This document shows positions 3,791 to 48,202 of a DNA stretch of 64,000 bases, one piece after another. The position numbers were made by a program, and so were the translations under genes. The notes below the pieces were generated by a model that saw only the letters and a program-made list of their open reading frames with translations, ran no database searches and had not been told where the DNA came from. Source of the stretch: Thermoplasmata archaeon (GTDB lineage: Archaea > Thermoplasmatota > SW-10-69-26 > JACQPN01 > JAJPHT01); NCBI GenBank assembly GCA_034667685.1, contig JAXDQU010000106.1, positions 11,610 through 75,609 of the forward strand, written 5' to 3'. How positions within the stretch are numbered: position 1 is the stretch's first letter; every line of letters starts with the position of its first letter.

Positions 3791-4720
3791 TCAAGAACGT
3801 TTCCGGAGGATCGCGAGGGCCACGACGCCCGCGAGGAGCAGCGCGAGGGGCGCGGCCGGCGACCTGGGCGAGACGGGCGGCGGGCTCGTGGTGACGCCTG
3901 GCGTCGTGCTCGGGCTCGTCGTCGTGGTCGGGGCCGGCGCCGTGCTCGTGCCGGGCGTCGTGCTGGGGATGACCGGCGTGGGCACGTTGGGCGCCTGCGC
4001 GCAGCGGAACGCGACGAGGTCCGAGCGCGCCACGAGCTGGTCGGGCGCGGCGTACGTCTCGCTGCGGACGATCTGGCACGCGGCCGGCGCCCACCAGTCG
4101 CGGCGCAGCGCGCCCCCGGGGAAGCGCCCTTCGAGGACGAAGGCGTGGAAGGCGCCGGCGGGCACGGCGAGGTCCTCCTCGCGCAGCACGGTCCAGTTGG
4201 CCGCGATCGTCGGCGTGGAGCCGTCGCTGCCGCGCAGCGCGCACGAGACGTTCCACGCGTCGCCCACGTGGAGCGGGAAGCGCGTCTCGCGGCAGGGGGC
4301 GTCGAGCGAGTACGTGACCGGGCCCGACGACTCGCGCATGAGGGCGAGGTCCTCGTCGCGGTACCAGGCGCTCTGCGACGCGGTGCCGTTGCGCGCCGTC
4401 GAGACGTTCCAGGCGTTGGCGAGCGTCCCGGCCGCCACGCGCTCCAGCCCGCCCACGGTGAGCGTGGCGTTCCCGCCCCCTTCGACGGCGTAGGACCACG
4501 CGTCTCCCTCGCTCCACGCGGGCTGCGTCATGGAGGCGGCGGCGGTGGGCACGAGCAGCACGAGGGCCAGGAGCAGGGCGCGCACGCGGGTGGGCACGTC
4601 GCGCCCGTGCTTGGCGCTTGCGCGCGGCGGCGGAGCAACGCGAGCAGCGCCACGCCCAGCACGAAGGCCGCGAGCGGCGCGGCGGGGGCGTCCTTCGTCG
4701 TCGACGACCTCGTTGCGCAC
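3791..4720 (-). CDS. secreted surface protein, paralog of 1922..2809
   Basis: Shares blocks with the neighbouring PGF-CTERM protein (PAGAFHAFVLEG vs AAGTFDALVIEA; WWAPAACQIVR vs WYAPDACGFVK). Many N-x-S/T sequons, Thr/Pro-rich linker, C-terminal TM plus RKRS. Start uncertain: signal peptide VRALLLALVLLVP suggests a GTG near 4585. Confidence 0.5.
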   Translation of the reverse strand: MRNEVVDDEGRPRRAARGLRAGRGAARVAPPPRASAKHGRDVPTRVRALLLALVLLVPTAAASMTQPAWSEGDAWSYAVEGGGNATLTVGGLERVAAGTLANAWNVSTARNGTASQSAWYRDEDLALMRESSGPVTYSLDAPCRETRFPLHVGDAWNVSCALRGSDGSTPTIAANWTVLREEDLAVPAGAFHAFVLEGRFPGGALRRDWWAPAACQIVRSETYAAPDQLVARSDLVAFRCAQAPNVPTPVIPSTTPGTSTAPAPTTTTSPSTTPGVTTSPPPVSPRSPAAPLALLLAGVVALAILRKRS

Positions 4721-4743
4721 GCGGCTCGCGGAGCCGTGATAGC

Positions 4744-5151
4744 TCAGGCGTGCCGCGCGGCGGCGACCTTGCGCACGAAGTCCACGATCGTGTCGGTGGG
4801 CGTGCCGGGGCCGAAGATCTCCTTGACGCCGCGCTTCTTGAGCTCGACCGCGTCGTCGGGCGGGATGACGCCCCCGCCCAGGACGACGATGTCCTCGGCG
4901 TCCTTCTCCTTGAGAAGCTCGACCACGCGCGGCATGAGCGTCATGTGCGCGCCCGAGAGCAGCGAGAGCGCGACGATGTCCACGTCCTCCTGCACGGCGG
5001 CCTCGGCCACCTGCTCGGGCGTCTGGCGCAGGCCCGTGTAGATGACCTCCATGCCCGCGTCGCGCAGGGCGCGCGCGAGCACCTTGGCGCCGCGGTCGTG
5101 GCCATCGAGGCCCGGCTTCGCGACGAGCACGCGGATCTTGCGCTCCGACAT
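4744..5151 (-). CDS. methylmalonyl-CoA mutase small subunit (B12-binding domain)
   Basis: Cobalamin-binding motif DGHDRGAKV and Rossmann-like VVLGGGVIP, characteristic of the archaeal split MCM C-terminal subunit. Start at MSERKIRV. Confidence 0.75.
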
Positions 5152-5332
5152 CGGCGCGGCGAGCGGGCCCTTGCGCAAATAGGTTTTCGGGGCGCGCCCA
5201 GAACCTGTTTCATGGCCTCCCCCCTGGCTACGAGGTCTTTCTTTTCACCTTCTGCGTGGCCCGGCCAGAGGCATGGGACGCAACAACAGGAGCGAATCCT
5301 GCGCGGCTGCGGCAGAGGTCGTGAAACAGCCT

Positions 5333-5641
5333 CTAGTCGCAGGGCCGCGGGTCGATCACCGGGATGTTGCAGGGCTGAATGGTCTGCCCGTCGGGGCCGC
5401 AGAGCACCTCGTACTCGTACACGCCCCGCACGGGCGGATCGACGACGAGGAAGTAGCAGACCGCGCCGCGCGAGGTGGTGTAGTTCCCCACGCACGCCTC
5501 GGGCTGTTGGTCGTTGGGGTTCGTGAGGGGCGCGCAGGCGGTGATGGCGGAGGCCGGGGGCGCGAGGAGCAGCGGGGCCAGGCAGCAGACGAGGAGGAGG
5601 AGGAGGAGGAGGAGGAGGAGGAGGAGAGTGGGGCGGATCAC
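5333..5641 (-). CDS. small secreted Cys-rich protein with poly-Leu signal peptide
   Basis: GTG start, V-I-R-P-T-(L)12-VCCLAPLLLAPPASA signal peptide, then a ~70-aa mature region with 6 Cys. The poly-Leu is encoded by a (GAG)12 repeat read on the minus strand. Confidence 0.45.
   Translation of the reverse strand: MIRPTLLLLLLLLLLLLVCCLAPLLLAPPASAITACAPLTNPNDQQPEACVGNYTTSRGAVCYFLVVDPPVRGVYEYEVLCGPDGQTIQPCNIPVIDPRPCD
5591..5626. repeat. (GAG)12 trinucleotide microsatellite
   Basis: Twelve perfect GAG units. On the minus strand this is CTC x12, coding the Leu12 core of the signal peptide of the 5333..5641 gene. Confidence 0.9.
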
Positions 5642-5707
5642 ACGCGAGGGCGCTCCTCCGAGGCCGTGAGGATTGTGGGCCAGTTTTTTGCCAGCCCTCC
5701 GCGCCGG

Positions 5708-39259: not shown

Positions 39260-40909
39260 ATGGACCCCGGACGCAAGCCCCGTATCCCGCGTGCATTTGC
39301 CATCGCGTGCGCCGCGCTCGTCGCCCTGACGAGCCTCGGCGCCGCCTCGCTCGCGCAATCCGCGGGGCCCGACATTGTCGTCGCGCGGGGCGTGACGCTC
39401 ACGCTCGATGCGCCCGCGCACCTGCGCCATCTCCTCGTCCAGGGCGAGCTGGTCCTCGACCTGCCGCCCCATGCGGTCCTCGCTGCCGATGACGTCCGCG
39501 TCGCCTCGTCCGGCGCGATCCGCGGCGCCAACGGCGCGGACGCGCCCGCCGCGCGCGGCCTCGACGCGTCTGGCCTGCCAGGCGCGCCCGGCGCGAGCGT
39601 CGCGCTGCGCGTCGGCTCGCTGGTGGTCGAGCGCGGCGGCGCGATCGTTGCCGGCTCGGGCGGGCGCGGCGGCGACGCCCTCGGATCCGGCCTCCTCCGC
39701 GGCGGCCCCGGAGGCGCCGGCGGCTCGCTCCTCCTCGACGCGGCGCAGAGCAGTGTCGAGGGGCGCCTCGCGGCGGGCTCGGGTGGCGAAGGCGGCGACG
39801 CGATCGCGCTGCGCGCGCCGGCGACCGCGCAGGGCGGACGCGGCGGCGACACGGGCGTCGCGCTGCTCGACGGCGCGCCGATCCCCATGACGAATGATAT
39901 CATGCCGTCCCCGCGCTTCGCGGCCGGGTGCAGCTCGCCGCCTCTCGGCGCGCCCGGCGCGGCCGTCGTCGGCGGCGCGGGCGGATACGCCTGCATGCGC
40001 GTCGAGAGCGAGGCCGGCGCGCCCGGCCCCGCGTGCGGCCCCGGCACGGAAGGCGGGCCGGCCCTCGCCCTCGCCATCGGCGGCGACGGCGGCGACGGCC
40101 TCGCGCCTGGCGCCCCCGGAGGCGCCGGCGGCAGCGCGTTCGCGCAGGCCGACGCCGGGCAAGGCGGCGCGGGCGCGGACTGCATCACGGGCAGCGGCGG
40201 CGCCGGAGGCGTTGGCGGCCGGGCCCTCGCCCAGGCGCGCGCGGGCCAGGGCGGCCAGGGAGGCGTGGGCGCGGCGGGCGGCGCCGGCGGACTCGCCTTC
40301 GCGCAGGCGCGCGGCGGACCCGGTGGCGCAGGCGGGTCGGGCGCGCTCGCGGGAGGCGCTGGCGGCGTCGGCGGCGCGGCGGACGCCTCGGCGCTTGGCG
40401 GCGCGGGCGGCGCGGGCGGAGCGCTCGGCGCGCCCGCAGGCGGAGGCGGCCCCGGCCGCGCGGACGCTTCGGGCGGCCACGGCGGCGCGGGAGGCCGCGG
40501 CCAGACGGCGGGCGGGAATGGCGGCGAAGGAGGCGCAACCTCCGCCAACGCCACCGGAGGCGGCGGCGGGGCCGGGGATTCCGGCGGAGGCGGCGGACCG
40601 GGAATCACCAGCATCGACGCGCGCGGCGGCGACGGCGGCGCGCCCGATGGCCTGGGCGGAGCGGGAGGCGCGTGGCGCTCCATCGCCACCGGAGGCGCGG
40701 GCGGCGACGGGTGCGACGGCGGCCAGGGCGCGAACGGCGGCTTCGCGGTGGCCGGCACGCCGGGCCCAGGCGTCTCGGGCGGATCGAACACGGAAGGTGG
40801 CACGGCTCCCCCGGGCGCCGGCAGCGCCACCGCGACGCAAGGCCGGGCCGGAGCCGCGGGCGGGCCGGGCTGCATGTTGTTAGCGATCGACTGGAGGACA
40901 CCAAGATGA
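39260..40909 (+). CDS. secreted Gly-rich GGxGG-repeat protein 2
   Basis: Signal peptide MDPGRKPRIPRAFAIACAALVALTSLGAASLA. Paralogous N-terminal domain and Cys block. Long GGAGG/GGQGG repeat region. Confidence 0.55.
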   Translation: MDPGRKPRIPRAFAIACAALVALTSLGAASLAQSAGPDIVVARGVTLTLDAPAHLRHLLVQGELVLDLPPHAVLAADDVRVASSGAIRGANGADAPAARGLDASGLPGAPGASVALRVGSLVVERGGAIVAGSGGRGGDALGSGLLRGGPGGAGGSLLLDAAQSSVEGRLAAGSGGEGGDAIALRAPATAQGGRGGDTGVALLDGAPIPMTNDIMPSPRFAAGCSSPPLGAPGAAVVGGAGGYACMRVESEAGAPGPACGPGTEGGPALALAIGGDGGDGLAPGAPGGAGGSAFAQADAGQGGAGADCITGSGGAGGVGGRALAQARAGQGGQGGVGAAGGAGGLAFAQARGGPGGAGGSGALAGGAGGVGGAADASALGGAGGAGGALGAPAGGGGPGRADASGGHGGAGGRGQTAGGNGGEGGATSANATGGGGGAGDSGGGGGPGITSIDARGGDGGAPDGLGGAGGAWRSIATGGAGGDGCDGGQGANGGFAVAGTPGPGVSGGSNTEGGTAPPGAGSATATQGRAGAAGGPGCMLLAIDWRTPR

Positions 40910-42723
40910 TATCAGGACACGGAGCCCGAAGGACAAACCGATCGACCCGGCTCGCTGCGACCTGCGCGGTCGCGTTGGGCCTCGTTCTCCTGACGCCGAT
41001 CGTGGGCAGCTTCGGGACCAATGCGCCCGGGATGGACGCGAGCGTCCCTGAGGGCGCGGTGACGACGCTGCAAGGCGCGCGCTCGTTGCACGACATCGAC
41101 GTGCTGGGCACGCTCGTGCTCGACCTCGCCCCCGGCCAGACCCTCGACGCGGTCCATGTGCACGTGGGCGGCCACGGCGCGATCGTGGGTGCCGCAGGCG
41201 CGGCGGGCGCAGACGCGCAGGGACGCGACGCGCAGGGCGCCGCAGGCGCGGAGGGCGGCCGCGTGGTGATCCAGGCGGACTCCATCACGCTCGACGAAGG
41301 AAGCCTCGTGCAGGGCGGCCGTGGCGGTGAGGGCGGCGCGGCGACTGGCTACGGCGTCGTGGTCGGCGGCAACGGAGGCACGGGCGGCTTCGTGCGCGTG
41401 ACCGCGCGGGAGCGCAGCGTGCACGGCCTCATCCTGCCCGGCTCGGGCGGCGACGGCGGCGCGGCCGTCGAGATCGTCAACGCGTCGCAGGTCGTCGGCA
41501 TGAGCGTCAAGGCCGTCGGCGGGCGCGGGGGCGACACGGGCCGCGCGTGGCTCAATGGCGTCCTGGTCCCGGCCAAGCTGCCCGACCTGCCGAAGCCGCC
41601 GCTTGTCTCGATCAATCCGCCGCTCCAGTGCCCCGGCGGCGCGGCGCTCATCATCGGCTCGCCCGGGTTGCCCGAGGGCGGCCACGGCGGGACCGCGTGC
41701 ATGCTCAGCATCGGCGCCCCGGGCGCCAACGGGTCGGGCTGCGCTGGCTCGACGGGCGACGCGGGCTCGACGGGAGACGCGGCAGCGGCTGCGGCGGTCG
41801 GCGGACGCGGCGGCGACGCCGCGCTTCCGGGCGTGCCCGGCGGCGGGGGCGGCGACGCGTGGGCGATCGCGCGCGGCGGCAACGGCGGCGACGGAAACAG
41901 CTGCCTGACCGGCGGCGCGGGTGGCAACGGTGGCGGCGCACAAGCGGAGGCCGTCGGAGGCGAGGGCGGCATGGGCGGGACGCTCGGCGCCCTGGGCGGC
42001 TTGGGCGGCTGCGGCTACGCAGAGGCCAAGGGAGGGCTCGGCGGCACGGGAGGCTCGGGCTCGACCACCGGAGGCGCTGGCGGCTCGGGCGGCAGCGCGT
42101 CCGCCACGACGGACGGCGGCGACGGCGGGCCCGGCGGCCTGCCCAACGGCCTGGCCGGCGACGGCGGCTGCACGTTCACCTTCGGGGCGGGCGGCAACGG
42201 AGGCCGCGGTGGGGCCTGCACCAGCATGTCCCTCTGCACGGCCGGCACGGGCGGCAGCGCGGGCCAGCCCACCGACGCCAAGTCGCGCGGCGGACGCGGT
42301 GGCGACGGCGGGCGCGGAGGGAATGGCGGCGCGGCGCACAGCGAGGTTGACCCGCGCGGCGGGGACGGCGGCGTGCCCAATGGCCTGGGCGGGCTGGGCG
42401 GCAGCGTGAGCGTCCTGGCGGCGGGCGGCGACGGCGGGAACAGCCTCACCTGGCCCGAAGGGGGACTGGGCGGCGAGGCGAGCACGCTGATCCCCCAGGG
42501 GAGCCTCGATGGCGGCCTGGGCGGCGACGGCACCCCCGCGCTGGGCGGGGTGGTTCTCGCCGACCAATCCAAGCGGGGCGAGGATGGGGTCGGGACCGGT
42601 GGGCCTGGGCCCTCCGTTGGCGGCGCACCCACGCTCTCATCCTGGGGCGCGGCGCTCATGGCCGCCGCGCTGCTTGGCGTGGGCGTCGCCTTCACGCGGC
42701 CCCGAAGGCCCGATCAGCCCTGA
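40906..42723 (+). CDS. secreted Gly-rich GGxGG-repeat protein 3 with C-terminal TM anchor
   Basis: ATG overlaps the stop of protein 2 (ATGA). Signal peptide, paralogous N-domain, GGxGG repeats, then C-terminal WGAALMAAALLGVGVAFTRPRRP (hydrophobic helix plus basic cluster, sorting-signal-like). Confidence 0.55.
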   Translation: MISGHGARRTNRSTRLAATCAVALGLVLLTPIVGSFGTNAPGMDASVPEGAVTTLQGARSLHDIDVLGTLVLDLAPGQTLDAVHVHVGGHGAIVGAAGAAGADAQGRDAQGAAGAEGGRVVIQADSITLDEGSLVQGGRGGEGGAATGYGVVVGGNGGTGGFVRVTARERSVHGLILPGSGGDGGAAVEIVNASQVVGMSVKAVGGRGGDTGRAWLNGVLVPAKLPDLPKPPLVSINPPLQCPGGAALIIGSPGLPEGGHGGTACMLSIGAPGANGSGCAGSTGDAGSTGDAAAAAAVGGRGGDAALPGVPGGGGGDAWAIARGGNGGDGNSCLTGGAGGNGGGAQAEAVGGEGGMGGTLGALGGLGGCGYAEAKGGLGGTGGSGSTTGGAGGSGGSASATTDGGDGGPGGLPNGLAGDGGCTFTFGAGGNGGRGGACTSMSLCTAGTGGSAGQPTDAKSRGGRGGDGGRGGNGGAAHSEVDPRGGDGGVPNGLGGLGGSVSVLAAGGDGGNSLTWPEGGLGGEASTLIPQGSLDGGLGGDGTPALGGVVLADQSKRGEDGVGTGGPGPSVGGAPTLSSWGAALMAAALLGVGVAFTRPRRPDQP

Positions 42724-43173: not shown

Positions 43174-44682
43174 TTATAAGGCAGACGGGTCCGCGAGGGG
43201 TGGGAGCGCCTCCAGCGCGCCGCGCAGCGCCGGCCCTTCCGCCAGCGTGCCCACCGTGAGCACGTTGCCCATCTTGTGGACGGTCGGGTCGGTGACGCAT
43301 TTCTCGTTGCAGACGTCGACGAAGACGGCGTAGGGGCGGCCCTGGGGGTCGATGGCGGCGTCGATGAAGTCGTCCATCCCGCCGCAGCGCGTCTTGCCGC
43401 ACACGCCGCGCGCGAGGGGGTTGGCCGGGTCGTTGGCGGTGACGGTGGTGGCGACGGGGTGCGCGTCCTTCGCGTCGGTCATGACGGTGAGGTAGCCGTT
43501 CCACGAGGCGTTGGCCCACTCGGGCGGGTCCTGCGCGGGGCTGGCGATGTCGGTGACCGTGCCCTCGGGGCCGGTCTGCTTGCCCGCGTACCCGCCGGGG
43601 ATCGTCGTGGCGACGTAGGCGAACACGAGGCGGCCGTCGGCGCCCGCGGCGAGGGCGGGGAACGCGGCGGCGGTGACCTCGGGGGGCGAGACGACGAGGG
43701 CGGGCGCCCACGTGACACCGTGGTCCTTGCTCCAGGCGTAGGTGGGCAGGCCCTTGTCGCTGATCCATCCCGCGTACACGGTGCCGTTGTCGTCGACGGC
43801 GAGGTTCACGTCGTGCACGACGCCGCTGTTGATCACGGCGGAGCCCTTCGCGATGACGTGCGAGGTCCACGTGAGGCCGTCGTCCTCGGTGACGCCGATC
43901 GTGGGGTTGCGGTTGCAGCCGCCGTGCGCGAGGAAGACGCGCCCGTCCTTGTCCGTGACCGGGTGGCCCAGCGAGTCGCCCGGGCAGTCGGTGGGGTCGG
44001 TCGTCTGCGGGAAGACCGTCACGACGGGGCCGAACGTGTAGCCGCCGTTGAGCGAGGTGGCGCACTCGGTCGTGACGCCGGTGTTCGTGCACGAGTAGAC
44101 GACATTGGGATAGAGCGGGCTCACGGGGAGCATGCGCGGCTTGGCGGCGACCATGCTCTGGTGGTCCGCGATGGGGACACCCGCGCCCACGCCGCAGCCC
44201 ACGGGGCTCGTGGTCCACGTGGCGCCCGCGTCGTCCGTCCACGAGAGGATCGCGCACTCGGCGTCGTTCTCGTTCTTGTAGACGCGCCCCGTCGTCGGGT
44301 CGAGGTACATGTACGGGTCGAGCGTCTGCGGCGGCGCGTGCTGGCCCGTGGGCAGCGTGGGCCCCACGTCCTTCCACGTCAGGCCGTGGTCCTCGGAGCG
44401 CATGATGGTGGGCTCGCCAGCCTGGAACGCCTCGGCGAAGATGCGCCCCTTGCTATCAATGCCCAGCGTGGGCTCGCCGCCCGAGGCGCCGGTGGAGAGC
44501 TGCAGGCCGCGGGCGGGCAGGGGCGCGGCGGCCGGGATCGCGCCGCCGCCGAGGACGTGGACCTCGCCCGCGAGCGAGGCGGGGAGCGTCGAGGCGCTCT
44601 GGACGGGCTGGGGGACGGCGCCGGGCGCGGCGCAGCCGGCGAGCAGGACGGCCAAGGCGAGGAAGACGAGCGCGAGACGCAT
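43174..44682 (-). CDS. BNR/Asp-box repeat (sialidase-like beta-propeller) lipoprotein
   Basis: Lipobox-like LAVLLAGCAAPG. Four Asp-boxes (SEDHGLTW, TDDAGATW, TEDDGLTW, SKDHGVTW). Start at MRLALVFLAL. Confidence 0.65.
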   Translation of the reverse strand: MRLALVFLALAVLLAGCAAPGAVPQPVQSASTLPASLAGEVHVLGGGAIPAAAPLPARGLQLSTGASGGEPTLGIDSKGRIFAEAFQAGEPTIMRSEDHGLTWKDVGPTLPTGQHAPPQTLDPYMYLDPTTGRVYKNENDAECAILSWTDDAGATWTTSPVGCGVGAGVPIADHQSMVAAKPRMLPVSPLYPNVVYSCTNTGVTTECATSLNGGYTFGPVVTVFPQTTDPTDCPGDSLGHPVTDKDGRVFLAHGGCNRNPTIGVTEDDGLTWTSHVIAKGSAVINSGVVHDVNLAVDDNGTVYAGWISDKGLPTYAWSKDHGVTWAPALVVSPPEVTAAAFPALAAGADGRLVFAYVATTIPGGYAGKQTGPEGTVTDIASPAQDPPEWANASWNGYLTVMTDAKDAHPVATTVTANDPANPLARGVCGKTRCGGMDDFIDAAIDPQGRPYAVFVDVCNEKCVTDPTVHKMGNVLTVGTLAEGPALRGALEALPPLADPSAL

Positions 44683-44765
44683 GCGCGCGCACGGCCGGCG
44701 GGCACACAAAGGCGTTGTGGTGCTGTCGCAACAATCCTCCACAACGATGATCGGCGCGCGCCCCG

Positions 44766-45131
44766 ATGTCCGAGGCGGTGTCGGTTGTGCGGACCCCTCT
44801 CTTCCTCGGCATGCTCCTCGTGACGTCCCTCGTCGCCCTCGCGCCCTCGGGCAACGCCGCCGCGAACGGCTGCGTCGACGCGGGCAGCGGCATCACCGCG
44901 TGCGGCGCGGCCGTCGCGGTCGGGTGCGGCGTCAGCACGGGTGTGGGCGCGGCGACCGGCATCGTCGCGTGGACGCTCGTGAGCAGCACCGAATCGGGCT
45001 CGAAGTCGTTCAGCCTGCGCGCGCCCGCCTTCGCCGGCGCCGCCGACGCGCCGTGCACCACGGCCTCGTGCACGACGGGCTTCCTCTACGCCAACGGCGT
45101 GCTTGTCTCCGAGAGCCAGACCGTGTGCTGA
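44766..45131 (+). CDS. small secreted Cys-containing protein
   Basis: Hydrophobic leader (LFLGMLLVTSLVALAPSGNAAA) then ~90 aa with 7 Cys, ending SQTVC. Gly/Ala/Thr-rich. Confidence 0.4.
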   Translation: MSEAVSVVRTPLFLGMLLVTSLVALAPSGNAAANGCVDAGSGITACGAAVAVGCGVSTGVGAATGIVAWTLVSSTESGSKSFSLRAPAFAGAADAPCTTASCTTGFLYANGVLVSESQTVC

Positions 45132-45244: not shown

Positions 45245-46072
45245 TCACGCGATGGGGTGCGAACTGACGTCGTTGACGGCCTTCTTGAGCCGCTTCAGGT
45301 CGAGTCTCTTCCTTGCGTGCGCATCGCGCTGCCAGGCGTCCAACGAATCGATGACCGTGTGCGCCTCGACGAGGTAGCATTCCGCGGCCTTCCACGTCAG
45401 GAGCTGATCCCCCTCCCTCCACGTGTGGACGAGCCAGATGCCGTTCTCGTCGTAATCGCGCGCCCACATCGAGTGCCCGCCGCCCGAGTTGGGCAGCCAG
45501 TCGCCGATCGCGGGCTGCCCGACGGGAATGTCCCAGGCCTTTGGGGGCGAGATGGACTCGAACGCCTTCGGGAGCGCAAGGCACACCGCGATCCCATGGG
45601 CGCCGCTCGAGGCGATCGCGCGGCGAACCTCCTGCTGGTCGAGGTGGTTGACCCTGACGTACGCGTCGATGGTCAGCGCGCGTCCGCTGGCGTCGCGGAT
45701 CGACAGCTCGGGGCGGCGCCAACGGTCGAGCGCGTCGGTCTCGTACGCGCCCTCGTCGTTGCCCCCGTAGAGGTCCGCGCACATCTTCTCGAACACGCGA
45801 AGCGGCTCGTCCTCGGCAATCTGCGGGACGTGCCCCGTCTCGAGCCGCTCCATGCGCAGCATGGCGACGGCCTGCTTCGCGATCGTGCAATCGTTGTGCT
45901 CTGTGTTGCCGTAGGCATGCCTGGCGAAAGGCGCCCTGCGGTTCCAGAAGCCCGTCGCCTTGGGAGGCTTCACGGTCCCCCGCGCGAAGGCTCCGAACAT
46001 CAGGGCTTTCGCCGACGTCTTCGGGGGCAGGCATCCGGTTCTCCTGTTCGCGAGTGGTGTTCGCATCATGGT
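45245..46072 (-). CDS. hypothetical protein, possible papain-like/CHAP-like Cys-His hydrolase
   Basis: ~275 aa. Candidate nucleophile in GNTEHNDCTIAKQ and His in GGGHSMWARDYDENGIWLVHTW. Assignment is speculative. Start at MMRTPL, abutting the upstream stop. Confidence 0.35.
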   Translation of the reverse strand, partial: TMMRTPLANRRTGCLPPKTSAKALMFGAFARGTVKPPKATGFWNRRAPFARHAYGNTEHNDCTIAKQAVAMLRMERLETGHVPQIAEDEPLRVFEKMCADLYGGNDEGAYETDALDRWRRPELSIRDASGRALTIDAYVRVNHLDQQEVRRAIASSGAHGIAVCLALPKAFESISPPKAWDIPVGQPAIGDWLPNSGGGHSMWARDYDENGIWLVHTWREGDQLLTWKAAECYLVEAHTVIDSLDAWQRDAHARKRLDLKRLKKAVNDVSSHPIA

Positions 46073-46821
46073 TCTTCCTTCAGCGTGATCTCGGGTCGAG
46101 CGGGCGCGCGCGGTGGCGGCGCAACGGGCCCTGGGACGCGGAGCGCGCCGCGCGTGGCGTCTTGCCAAGAACGCAGCACGTCGGGCGCGATGGGCTCGGG
46201 CAGGATGGGCGCGAGGTCCTTCGCGAGCCGCGCGGGATCCGCGGCGAGGAAACCGGCAGGGTCCTTGATCGCGGTCTTTGCGATCGCTTCCAGGAGCGCC
46301 GGAGGGATCGTCGGTAGCGCGAGGATCGCCGCCTTGTCGAGCGCGCGATCGAGGCTCGCGCCAAGCCTGAGGTTCGCGAGCGCTGCGCGCCCCGCGGCGG
46401 TCTGCGAGATGCGCATCAGGTCGTCCACCGAGAAGACGCGATGCGCGGCAAGCTTCTCAATCGCCTGATGCGGGAGCCCAAGCGTCGAGAGCGGCTGCGG
46501 CGCGCTCGGAAGCGGCGCGCGTGGCGCGTCTTGCGAGGGCCGCACGCGCAGGCGAAGCGTCGCGCCGCCCGGCGCCGCGTCGTTCGAGAGGCTCACGAGG
46601 ACTTGGCCCAGCTCGTCGAGACGCGCGCGGACGGGCAGCGTCAACTCCAGGTCGTCCAGGATGTAACAGCCTGACGCTCTCGGATGCCGCGCCAGCTCCT
46701 CGTGGATGCCCATCGCGGCGGAGGCGACGGTTTCGCCCAGCTCGTGCAGGACGACCTCGGAAGGGAGCGACGAGAGAGGCTCAACCGGCACGCCCGTCAC
46801 CTCCCGACGCCAGAAAGGCAA
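46066..46821 (-). CDS. hypothetical protein (possible HhH-like helical C-terminal region)
   Basis: 251-aa ORF. Region LGLPHQAIEKLAAHRVFSVDDLMRISQTAAGRAAL resembles a helix-hairpin-helix. No confident family. Confidence 0.35.
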   Translation of the reverse strand: MPFWRREVTGVPVEPLSSLPSEVVLHELGETVASAAMGIHEELARHPRASGCYILDDLELTLPVRARLDELGQVLVSLSNDAAPGGATLRLRVRPSQDAPRAPLPSAPQPLSTLGLPHQAIEKLAAHRVFSVDDLMRISQTAAGRAALANLRLGASLDRALDKAAILALPTIPPALLEAIAKTAIKDPAGFLAADPARLAKDLAPILPEPIAPDVLRSWQDATRGALRVPGPVAPPPRAPARPEITLKEEP

Positions 46822-46873
46822 GGCCGGAATGAGACGACCGCGGCTGCGCGAGAACCGCCGCCATCGTCGCGCC

Positions 46874-48061
46874 TCAGATGTTGATCCCGACGTCGGCGTT
46901 CACGTAGCCGAAGGACGCGTGGACGACCGTCGCGGCGGGAGGCTTCGTCTTGTCGAATTGCGCTCCTTCGCGGGACACCGTGATGACCACCTTGCCCGCG
47001 CTGTCCGTCTTGTCGGTTGTGGACTTGTACGTCCAGCTCAGGAAGGGGTCGCTCAGCGTGATGTCGATGGACTTGCCCGCGAGCGCCGTGCTGTCCACCT
47101 TCAGGAGCGTGAGGGTGACGTCCACGGCGCGCCCCGTGGGGTCGGGGGGCGACCCTCCAGGGGGCGTAGCGGGGACCACGTCCACGCGGGGTCCCGCGGT
47201 CAGCTTCAGCGAGGGGCCCTTCTGCACGATGACCGGCTTAGGAATCTGCATGTCGGGGCGCGGCTCCAACGTCGCGTCGAGATGCATGGAGCCCGCGGCC
47301 TGATCCGTGGACGTGCTCGAATCGCCGGATGCCGCGTAGGAGCCGAAGCTGTAACCGATGCTCCCCGACGCGCCCACGCCGTGCAGGCGGCTGTACGTGG
47401 CGGCCGCGCCCACCGAGAAGCCTTGGCTTTTCCCTTGGACGTTGAACCCGTTGGCGGTGTTGAACTCCGAGACCTTCATGTCGGCCGAGATGTGGACGGA
47501 CTTCCACAAGTAGGCGGGCGGCGTGATGTAGTTGATCAGCGGGAGCTTCATCACAACGGGGTGTCCGTCCACCAGCTGGCCATCGTCGTCGAGCTTCTGC
47601 TCGAAGACCGCGATGACGTCGATCATCTGCTGCGAGAGCGCCGAGGCCGTGACGACGAGGCCTGCGTCGAGCTGGGCCTGCGCTTCCGCGACGGCATCGC
47701 CAACCTTGCTCACGAGCAGACCGAACGCCGGTCCCCCTCGGGCGAGCTCGTCGGTGATGTCAGCATCCGGAGCGACCACGGGCGTCACGCCCATCTTCGC
47801 TTCGCCGACGTGCAATGCCGTGGGGTGCCCGGTCCCGCCTGCCGTGAGGGCCCCCTGCCGGAGATCGCGAGCGTCCTGCTGCGCGAGGCGGATGGCCCGG
47901 AGCTGCGCGGCCTGGGCGGCGTCGATGGCTTCCTGAACGTCCTTGGAGATGGGCGCCTTTCGCTGGCTGGCGTTCGACGATTCGTGCTTGCTCTTCTTGA
48001 CGTGCGTGAGTGCCACGTGATCAGACCTCCGGGCTCGCGAGGAGAAAGGATGTGATACCAT
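46874..48061 (-). CDS. hypothetical protein: N-terminal coiled-coil, C-terminal beta-rich region
   Basis: ~395 aa. N-terminal KKSKHESSNASQRKAPISKDVQEAIDAAQAAQLRAIRLAQQDARDL, then a Gly/Ser/Thr-rich beta region (GSIGYSFGSYAASGDSST...VDVTLTLLKVDSTALAGKSIDITL). Start at MVSHPF preceded by GAGGAA. Confidence 0.4.
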   Translation of the reverse strand: MVSHPFSSRARRSDHVALTHVKKSKHESSNASQRKAPISKDVQEAIDAAQAAQLRAIRLAQQDARDLRQGALTAGGTGHPTALHVGEAKMGVTPVVAPDADITDELARGGPAFGLLVSKVGDAVAEAQAQLDAGLVVTASALSQQMIDVIAVFEQKLDDDGQLVDGHPVVMKLPLINYITPPAYLWKSVHISADMKVSEFNTANGFNVQGKSQGFSVGAAATYSRLHGVGASGSIGYSFGSYAASGDSSTSTDQAAGSMHLDATLEPRPDMQIPKPVIVQKGPSLKLTAGPRVDVVPATPPGGSPPDPTGRAVDVTLTLLKVDSTALAGKSIDITLSDPFLSWTYKSTTDKTDSAGKVVITVSREGAQFDKTKPPAATVVHASFGYVNADVGINI

Positions 48062-48202
48062 TCCTCGCCGCGAGTCCGGTATGCGTGGACCTATGGGCTC
48101 CTCGGGTTTACGCCTTGCAGCGTCCATACGGTTGCTATAGGCGTTCCGAGCGGCAACGCCGACCATGCAAGGCCGAAAGCAGGGTCTCCGCGCGAAGGCG
48201 CG

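Follow-up and report, generated by a model that had tools for sequence, protein, structure and literature searches.

A three-gene operon with a papain-fold peptidase in a Thermoplasmata archaeon is related to an unannotated gene cassette of bacteria and archaea

Three genes at the archaeal locus

We analyzed a 64-kb stretch of DNA from a Thermoplasmata archaeon (hereafter the window), in which three open reading frames (ORFs) of the minus strand, ORF1 to ORF3, lie downstream of an aro-asd operon (Table 1). A preliminary description had presented them as an uncharacterized operon combining an effector, an accessory protein and a peptidase. Our analyses show that the three genes are part of a fairly widespread, unannotated cassette whose modular make-up clearly differs between bacteria and archaea. 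What we propose for its function is inferential.

The three ORFs have the codon-position composition of coding sequences. Their GC content is 0.83-0.89 at third positions (GC3) and 0.48-0.53 at second positions (GC2), in a genome of 72% GC, and exceeds at third positions that of long antisense ORFs (GC3 0.66-0.70). A first pass returned 19, 25 and 68 homologues for ORF1, ORF2 and ORF3, respectively, and a profile search of 1.84 billion cluster representatives put the ORF1 family at 272 representatives. Because of this composition and the many conserved homologues of each, ORF1-ORF3 are real genes, not chance ORFs. The gene order is identical in three independent assemblies (one NCBI metagenome-assembled genome, MAG, and two JGI metagenomes), which rules out a chimeric contig. 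None of the three proteins has a meaningful match in Pfam, NCBIfam, PADLOC or PHROGs, and none received a confident housekeeping assignment; the operon is genuine and as uncharacterized as had been described. Matches of ORF3 to GvpA (E 0.008; 16 bits, cutoff 151) and of ORF1 to EspC and pestivirus models in the library scans were discarded as noise. Sequence searches of the PDB with the ORF1, ORF2 and ORF3 family profiles gave nothing useful.

The junctions had been called tight. This holds: the ORF2 stop and the ORF3 start overlap in an ATGA, an arrangement that is consistent with translational coupling, and the gap between ORF1 and ORF2 measures 52 nt with the longest ORF2 start, not 53. Homologues of ORF3 align from residue 1-3 on and G12 is invariant, so the long 274-aa start is correct, not a 251-aa call. 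For ORF1, the longest ORF reaches 48166, and by the length of a 380-aa NCBI protein the start would lie about 15 codons inside the ATG used here.

Table 1 Genes and features of the three-gene operon (positions are those of the window)
Feature	Position	Strand	Description
ORF1 (A)	46874-48061	minus	395 aa from ATG; putative effector, three-part
ORF1 residues 1-100	47762-48061	minus	Poorly conserved, partly helical/disordered N-terminal extension
ORF1 residues 200-256	47294-47464	minus	Gly/Ser-rich, almost uncharged; candidate membrane-inserting beta-hairpin
ORF1 residues ~305-395	46877-47149	minus	C-terminal immunoglobulin-like beta-sandwich, Big_1 (invasin/intimin) type
ORF1-ORF2 spacer	46822-46873		52 nt with the longest ORF2 start; slot of B and C in bacteria
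ORF2 (D)	46066-46821	minus	251 aa; proposed accessory/regulatory protein
ATGA overlap of ORF2 stop and ORF3 start	46066-46069	minus	Read off the sequence
ORF3 (E1)	45245-46069	minus	274 aa; predicted divergent papain-fold (clan CA, C1-like) cysteine peptidase
ORF3 Cys61 codon	45887-45889	minus	Candidate catalytic Cys
ORF3 His199 codon	45473-45475	minus	Candidate catalytic His

ORF3 is predicted to be a divergent, C1-like cysteine peptidase of clan CA. Its structure model (predicted local distance difference test score, pLDDT, 94.1; predicted template modeling score, pTM, 0.91) has a papain-like, two-lobed alpha/beta fold. A Foldseek search of the PDB with this model gave 199 matches at E ≤ 1e-3, and all those listed were papain, cathepsins or xylellain. 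The top match was xylellain 3ois (E 1.6e-8, TM-score 0.65-0.67, probability 1.0), with papain and cathepsins K, L, S and H next. The candidate Cys/His dyad pointed out earlier (NDC...GGGHSMW) is borne out by this fold and by the alignment, in which N55, C61, H199 and W217 are invariant across 45 homologues. In the model, C61 opens the central helix (61-78) and H199 lies within strand 197-206. We take the spacing of N55-C61 (6) and of H199-H215-x-W217 (16 and 18) to equal that of papain Gln19-Cys25 and His159-Asn175-x-Trp177. Asn55 would then presumably stand at papain Gln19, and His215-Thr-Trp217 at Asn175-Ser-Trp177. Judged by spacing only, both papain-equivalent positions are substituted in ORF3, one by the invariant Asn55 and the other by the consensus His215.

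With xylellain (Xylella fastidiosa, MEROPS C1), ORF3 shares the fold, an invariant Cys/His dyad and, by our own reading, the oxyanion and third-residue spacing of papain; both are bacterial-type intracellular enzymes with an N-terminal extension. ORF3 differs from the papain family in its identity of only 13-17%, the Asn for Gln19, the His for Asn175, and the lack of a signal peptide and of a classical I29 prodomain. It matches no Pfam family at E ≤ 1, PF00112 (Peptidase_C1) included, whereas the peptidase of a related bacterial locus (L022 in our numbering) does match PF00112 (E 1.1e-15). ORF3 therefore represents a separate, divergent lineage of the papain fold.

The ORF3 family (E1) is promiscuous in its genomic setting. 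Members stand alone on the chromosomes of bacteria (L005, from Eisenbacteria, and L006). Others lie among replication genes in phage-like contigs (L007 and L008), and six IMG/VR contigs have relatives; loci L013-L018 are of the phage type. A distant relative (29% identity) is annotated as 'cysteine protease' in a GenBank phage (MW202816.1, L043; Caudoviricetes, myovirus; positions 4426-5645). It overlaps the end of an N-acetylmuramoyl-L-alanine amidase endolysin gene, immediately downstream of it, at the end of the baseplate/lysis region. A scan of a genome collection for the ORF3 profile relied on a single narrow peptide pattern; it returned one locus and has little bearing on taxonomic spread.

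ORF2 combines a conserved helix and beta N-domain (residues ~20-95; consensus 'EVxLHELGESxAxxVxxxQxELARY...LRLRLKP') with two helical repeats (~108-225; 'RIFSVDDLLRVA...' and 'LPxLP...') that resemble helix-hairpin-helix (HhH) motifs. This HhH assignment is tentative. The window protein has sub-threshold Pfam matches only (SAM_EPH, 0.057), and in the PDB the family profile found only BurrH helical repeats (E 2.7e-5). Among relatives, one carries a precomputed DUF4332 (PF14229) match and some have N-terminal CarboxypepD_reg/transthyretin-like domains.

A bacterial cassette and its archaeal variants

ORF1 and ORF2 correspond to the first and last genes of a bacterial cassette, A-B-C-D, whose order is conserved in loci L001, L002, L009-L012, L020, L022, L033 and L034. 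A is ORF1-like (~370-400 aa), B (~390-426 aa) carries an SLT lytic-transglycosylase domain (E 2.7e-11), C is small (~100-125 aa) and D is ORF2-like. In 22 further loci from a metagenome scan, B directly follows A in nearly all. D is always the last core gene of the cassette. Some of the contigs carry bacterial markers, namely sigma-70 (L009) and GGDEF-EAL (L012). Because public contig collections were scanned with short peptide patterns, relatives may be missed; the locus sample is small, gene calls in high-GC loci are rough, and taxonomy was taken from MAG labels and marker genes. Literature searches on SLT with defense, gasdermin or pore-forming and on DUF2589 returned no description of this cassette.

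Signal peptides and transmembrane or hydrophobic helices are absent from A, B, C, D, E1 and a second papain-like partner (E2, see below), even though B must act on murein. Beyond its SLT domain (residues 52-159), B (L002, 9145-10425, with orthologues in L025, L029 and L037) has a conserved C-terminal half of ~200 residues. Its 'SRH...D' and 'GYHLEIP' motifs resemble those of LAS/M15-type murein peptidases. B may thus be a bifunctional muralytic enzyme; Pfam and PDB sequence searches gave no confirmation.

The composition of the cassette varies. Gene C is missing from L025 and L029, and some bacterial loci hold two or three ORF1-like paralogues (L028 and L037). In L037 (6992-14138), A and B are followed by a subtilase gene in the C/D position, with a weak C-terminal HHH_5 match, and then by two more A-like genes. 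We rejected a subtilase-D fusion at this locus, as the C-terminal HhH of the subtilase fails to match the D profile.

A peptidase gene adjoins the cassette in 9 of the 13 loci with enough flanking sequence to be informative (our own count). In the window and L001 this partner is E1. E2, found in L002-L004 and L011, can be aligned to a protein that Pfam assigns to Peptidase_C1 (E 3e-5), and the L022 partner is the Pfam-recognized Peptidase_C1 mentioned above. Other partners are S8 subtilases (L012/L038 and L037), a chymotrypsin-like protein with a GDSGS motif and weak similarity to NAL1 and alphavirus capsid protease (L025/L029) and an astacin-like metallopeptidase (L010; 24.9 bits, cutoff 22.5). 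L011 additionally has a gene for a CHAT protein on the opposite strand. Three independent proteins are in-frame fusions of an S8 subtilase domain to an A-like C-terminal part: P0168 (1079 aa), P0221 (607 aa) and P0220 (441 aa, a fragment). The peptidase lies N-terminal to the extension region of the A-like part, and P0168 lacks an obvious signal peptide. We interpret the fusions as Rosetta-stone evidence that would link the peptidase to A. Because partner peptidases swap between classes and are fused to A, generic proteolysis of a cassette component appears to be part of the function. The effector, accessory protein and peptidase logic that had been proposed for the operon thereby gains from its relatives, whose peptidases belong to at least four catalytic classes.

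B is missing from the archaeal copies. Searches with B and C queries (tblastn) found nothing in the whole window, which keeps A, D and the papain-fold E1; the bacterial slot between A and D, filled by B (~1.2 kb) and C (~0.3 kb), is here the short spacer of Table 1. In the second archaeal instance (L024), A, C and D are present in that order and B is missing; its 842-kb contig (38% GC) encodes a proteasome-activating nucleotidase (552.8 bits; cutoff 500), an archaeal hallmark. Both archaeal instances are thus without B, and almost every bacterial locus has B directly after A. Since the archaeal ORFs are all intact, with the family-invariant residues kept, we regard them as a working, remodeled cassette rather than debris. 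A third B-less variant (A-C-D) lies on a 4.5-kb metagenome contig of 66% GC (L027); if bacterial, it would weaken the archaea-only correlation.

The best explanation for ORF1-ORF3 is descent by horizontal transfer from the conserved bacterial cassette, of which they would be a truncated archaeal derivative. The three genes deviate in composition: no other well-supported gene of the window has so low a GC3, and most reach 0.92-0.99. This fits a foreign origin. No integrase or other mobile-element gene flanks them.

The putative effector and candidate functions

ORF1 can be divided into a variable extension at the N-terminus, a helix/beta core that is faintly DUF2589-like, and an immunoglobulin (Ig) domain of the invasin type at the C-terminus. 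Its AlphaFold model has a mean pLDDT of 60. Values are below 50 at residues 1-37 and again at 63-107, a helix is modeled at 40-76, and the alignment is variable up to an invariant ADITDE motif ('ADITDE...GPAFG'). This extension is absent from many relatives, archaeal L024 (308 aa) included, and may be a pro-region that a peptidase removes. From the ADITDE motif on, the model has a 35-residue helix (110-144) and then long beta strands (146-295). Such an N-terminal helix and beta-rich region are what the preliminary description had seen as a coiled coil followed by a Gly/Ser-rich beta region.

Within the beta region, an alternation of hydrophobic and small residues (~206-250) with a 'Y-G-[ML]-F-G-G' tip is conserved column by column among 19 homologues. 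The model places two strands there (213-222 and 230-239) with low confidence. The pattern at ~200-256 is that of a putative membrane-inserting beta-hairpin, as in beta-pore-forming toxins. ORF1 had been likened to phage structural or pore-forming proteins; the pore-forming half of this comparison is consistent with the hairpin features, and the viral half found no structural match.

When 80 diverse members of the ORF1 family were scanned singly, 13 matched Big_1 and 5 weakly matched DUF2589 (best E 0.0015). The window protein has no DUF2589 match and no Pfam match of its own. Fold searches with its model returned only the Ig domain, the core being modeled with low confidence. The ORF1 family shares with DUF2589 (PF11655) a 'G-x-A-V-x-E-A-Q-x-x-LD' helix followed by beta strands, but the match stays under the curated threshold, and DUF2589 is so far without a function, so the link gives no mechanism. 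DUF2589 genes of Archaeoglobus fulgidus form tandem short paralogues, AF0414-AF0417 (PMC3949148).

Two other readings of ORF1 were rejected. A capsid or encapsulin of the HK97 type, with the coiled coil as 'delta domain' next to a protease, would have the hairpin before the helix, not the helix before the hairpin; capsid and PHROG matches and a nearby portal or terminase are also lacking. A type IV pilin-like reading fails because the helix is not hydrophobic.

We tentatively interpret the cassette as a protease-gated, membrane-permeabilizing (lysis) module, akin in its logic to gasdermin-protease or holin-endolysin pairs. We give this proposal a somewhat less than even chance of being right. 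It is suggested by the combination of a signal-less muralytic enzyme, an adjacent amphipathic-hairpin protein that lacks a transmembrane helix and a swappable or fused protease. It is also suggested by the variable extension of A, which is missing in short members (such as L024, with no peptidase nearby), and by the loss of B where there is no murein while the rest is kept. In such a module, A would be made as a soluble cytoplasmic precursor, and the partner peptidase (here ORF3) would cut or remove its variable N-terminal extension. The DUF2589-like core would then oligomerize and the amphipathic Gly/Ser beta-hairpin would enter the cytoplasmic membrane to form a pore. In bacteria, the signal-less SLT enzyme B would cross this pore and cut peptidoglycan, resulting in cell lysis. 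In wall-less archaea the pore alone could be enough, which would explain why B is dispensable. D, with its HhH-like repeats, may be an accessory protein or a regulator. The physiological purpose could be abortive infection or another form of programmed lysis or release.

The bolder claim that A-B-C-D, with its peptidase, is an unrecognized protease-gated beta-pore lysis or suicide system common to bacteria and archaea, modular in that the SLT gene is dropped in wall-less archaea, we consider doubtful. In that reading, ORF1 would found a new family of intracellular pore formers on a DUF2589 scaffold, unrelated in sequence to gasdermins; this, too, we rate as rather unlikely.

Bacterial gasdermins are among the closest known systems. 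Of 50 such genes, 43 adjoin protease genes whose products activate the pore former, and fungal gasdermins pair with subtilases (Johnson et al., bioRxiv 10.1101/2021.06.07.447441). The cassette is similar in placing a signal-less, cytoplasmic, putative beta-type pore former next to a protease that varies by locus, and in the defense genes beside some copies (L011 with ThsA). It differs in that A matches no gasdermin model (Pfam; 80 relatives scanned) and no gasdermin fold was detected with its weak core model. The candidate pro-region of A lies at the N-terminus instead of being an inhibitory peptide at the C-terminus, its C-terminus is a 90-residue Ig domain, and no palmitoylatable Cys lies near its N-terminus. 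The cassette also has three extra conserved genes (SLT, C and D), and its peptidases are mostly papain-like or subtilases, not caspase-like.

The similarity to holin-endolysin pairs lies in a signal-less muralytic enzyme (B) next to a possible membrane opener (A), a logic that also predicts the absence of the muralytic enzyme where there is no murein. However, A is no alpha-helical transmembrane holin, the cassette is not found in phage genomes, it includes a peptidase and an HhH-like protein, and spanins are lacking. With beta-barrel toxins (aerolysin/ETX-MTX2, leukocidin), which are commonly activated by removal of a pro-peptide, A would share a single Ser/Gly/Thr-rich amphipathic hairpin, flanking long strands and a separate beta-sandwich. 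Unlike them, it has no signal peptide and no matching hidden Markov model (HMM), fold or PDB sequence, and it would act from inside the producer.

Several points weigh against a lysis module. The ORF1 core, which would form the pore, reaches a pLDDT of only ~30-78, and fold searches led to the Ig domain only. No HMM of gasdermins, aerolysin/ETX-MTX2 or other pore-former families matched ORF1 or its relatives. Big_1 Ig-like and CarboxypepD_reg-like domains are typical of extracytoplasmic proteins, and a surface structure fits them at least as well. Loss of B in archaea would be equally expected if B were a murein 'space-maker' for an envelope structure, and the archaeal identity of these copies itself comes from MAG labels and two marker genes. 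Four informative loci have no adjacent peptidase (L009, L020, archaeal L024 and one JGI contig), and the L012 subtilase has a signal peptide and may not meet a cytoplasmic A. Finally, the defense-island context is weak and the neighbors in the window are housekeeping genes.

The strongest rival is an envelope or surface module, which we regard as rather unlikely. Here, A, C and D would be paralogous DUF2589-like subunits of an extracellular or envelope-spanning multimer (a fiber, sheet or channel). The SLT enzyme would open murein locally for assembly, as VirB1, FlgJ and EtgA do in secretion systems and flagella, and the peptidase would mature the subunits; wall-less archaea would need no SLT, so the loss of B is explained equally well. 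The surface-typical Big_1 domain of A and CarboxypepD_reg/transthyretin-like domains of many D proteins agree with such a structure, as do the two or three A paralogues of L028 and L037. A, C and D also share a 'G-x-A-V-x-x-Q-x-x-LD helix plus beta-strand' motif, and their paralogy is a possibility in profile comparisons. The hhalign signals are weak (C against A, P = 8.7e-4; D against A, P = 0.06; probabilities of at most 23%), and this counts against the module, as does the lack of a signal peptide, lipobox, transmembrane helix or sortase/PGF-type anchor in every component. The cassette contains no conserved transporter or ATPase either, and peptidases swapped across catalytic classes suit activation by cleavage more than dedicated maturation.

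An antagonistic, bacteriocin-like toxin is less probable still. A would then be a pore-forming or translocating toxin released with the muralytic B against competitors, with the peptidase processing a pro-toxin. The amphipathic hairpin and Ig-type binding domain of A, the muralytic B, the associated peptidases (one of them a subtilase with a signal peptide) and the variable genomic contexts could all be accommodated. However, no conserved immunity-like gene, export system or signal peptide accompanies the cassette, and library scans found no polymorphic-toxin, PAAR, Rhs or LXG markers. Moreover, an archaeon that dropped the anti-murein part would lose anti-bacterial activity, yet the rest is intact.

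Horizontal transfer could also have left a decaying relic, non-functional after the loss of B and C but with ORFs not yet degraded. Two missing core genes, a GC3 atypical of the host and a housekeeping neighborhood point that way. We consider this quite improbable, as the three ORFs are full length and keep family-invariant residues (including C61 and H199) and the overlapping stop and start, a neat 52-nt spacer remains where B and C went, and a second, unrelated archaeal genome (L024) retains A, C and D intact without B.

A remnant of phage structural or lysis genes, which the preliminary description had raised, is highly improbable and largely excluded for ORF1 and ORF2, applying at most to the peptidase family: E1 has its relatives in L007/L008, six IMG/VR contigs and beside a phage amidase endolysin gene, and Ig-like and SLT domains are frequent in phage proteins. 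Searches of IMG/VR, of 50,697 phage records and of 72,556 plasmids recovered no member of the ORF1 or ORF2 family, there are no PHROG matches, a BFVD fold search with the ORF1 model gave nothing at E ≤ 1e-3 (TM-scores ≤ 0.20), and no integrase, terminase, capsid, portal or tRNA gene lies in the window flanks or related loci.

A typical defense cassette had also been suggested earlier. Neither the three window proteins nor the L002 proteins A, B, C, D and E2 have a match among the models of PADLOC-DB v2. In L011, the cassette lies between a CHAT protease gene and genes for ThsA and a PD-T4-6-like kinase, and in L010 it adjoins genes for Mrr and an MBL-fold protein. Among 71 neighboring proteins from 12 loci, ThsA was the only unambiguous defense gene, in a single locus, and the sample is too small for statistics. 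The association with defense islands is weak, and a defense reading is so far unsupported.

If the cassette is indeed a protease-gated lysis module, it would represent a second, sequence-unrelated lineage of protease-activated pore formers in prokaryotic programmed cell death and would give a function to the orphan DUF2589-like scaffold. The archaeal copies would be a natural experiment, in which a lysis or envelope-breaching module was remodeled from murein-walled bacteria to wall-less archaea by loss of its muralytic gene. Two or three co-expressible genes would make a simple test system. Even if this mechanism is wrong, a key protein of ~270 clusters, linked to an SLT enzyme and swappable peptidases and unannotated in Pfam, NCBIfam and PADLOC, deserves a family definition.

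Host and flanking genes

Database entries 100% identical to the window proteins are labeled 'Thermoplasmata archaeon'. The upstream aro-asd operon encodes dehydroquinase/shikimate dehydrogenase, a GHMP-family kinase in the shikimate-kinase position, EPSP synthase and chorismate synthase, as well as CM/prephenate dehydrogenase, aspartate kinase and asd. Archaea solve the shikimate-kinase step with a GHMP-type kinase. Neither tRNAs nor Rfam RNAs were found in the 64 kb. The GC-rich 140-nt spacer between asd and ORF1 contains an AT-rich 'CCTATAGCAA' element (~48130-48138, minus strand) upstream of ORF1. This could be a candidate archaeal TATA-like promoter element that gives ORF1-ORF3 their own transcript.

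Downstream of the operon lie an ORF for a secreted, Cys-rich protein of 121 aa and then the BNR lipoprotein gene. The 121-aa ORF (44766-45131, plus strand) is convergent with ORF3 and encodes a clear signal peptide at the N-terminus, ahead of a mature part rich in Cys, Gly, Ala and Thr. A gene call by JGI exists for it in both independent assemblies; it may belong with the operon or have nothing to do with it. A BNR/sortilin-repeat gene adjoins the cassette both in the window (43174-44742, minus strand) and in bacterial L002-L004 (L002, 13492-16347, minus strand). We discarded this adjacency as a meaningful link; the window and L002 proteins have no mutual BLAST similarity, and it is probably a coincidence.

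Further along, a region with local GC of up to 0.87 (39928-42723, plus strand) encodes a long, Gly-rich, apparently secreted protein; its other frames contain long Arg-rich ORFs that are artefactual. An internal Met precedes the hydrophobic N-terminal segment of the protein, and basic residues follow a hydrophobic anchor at its C-terminus; it is probably an archaeal surface protein.

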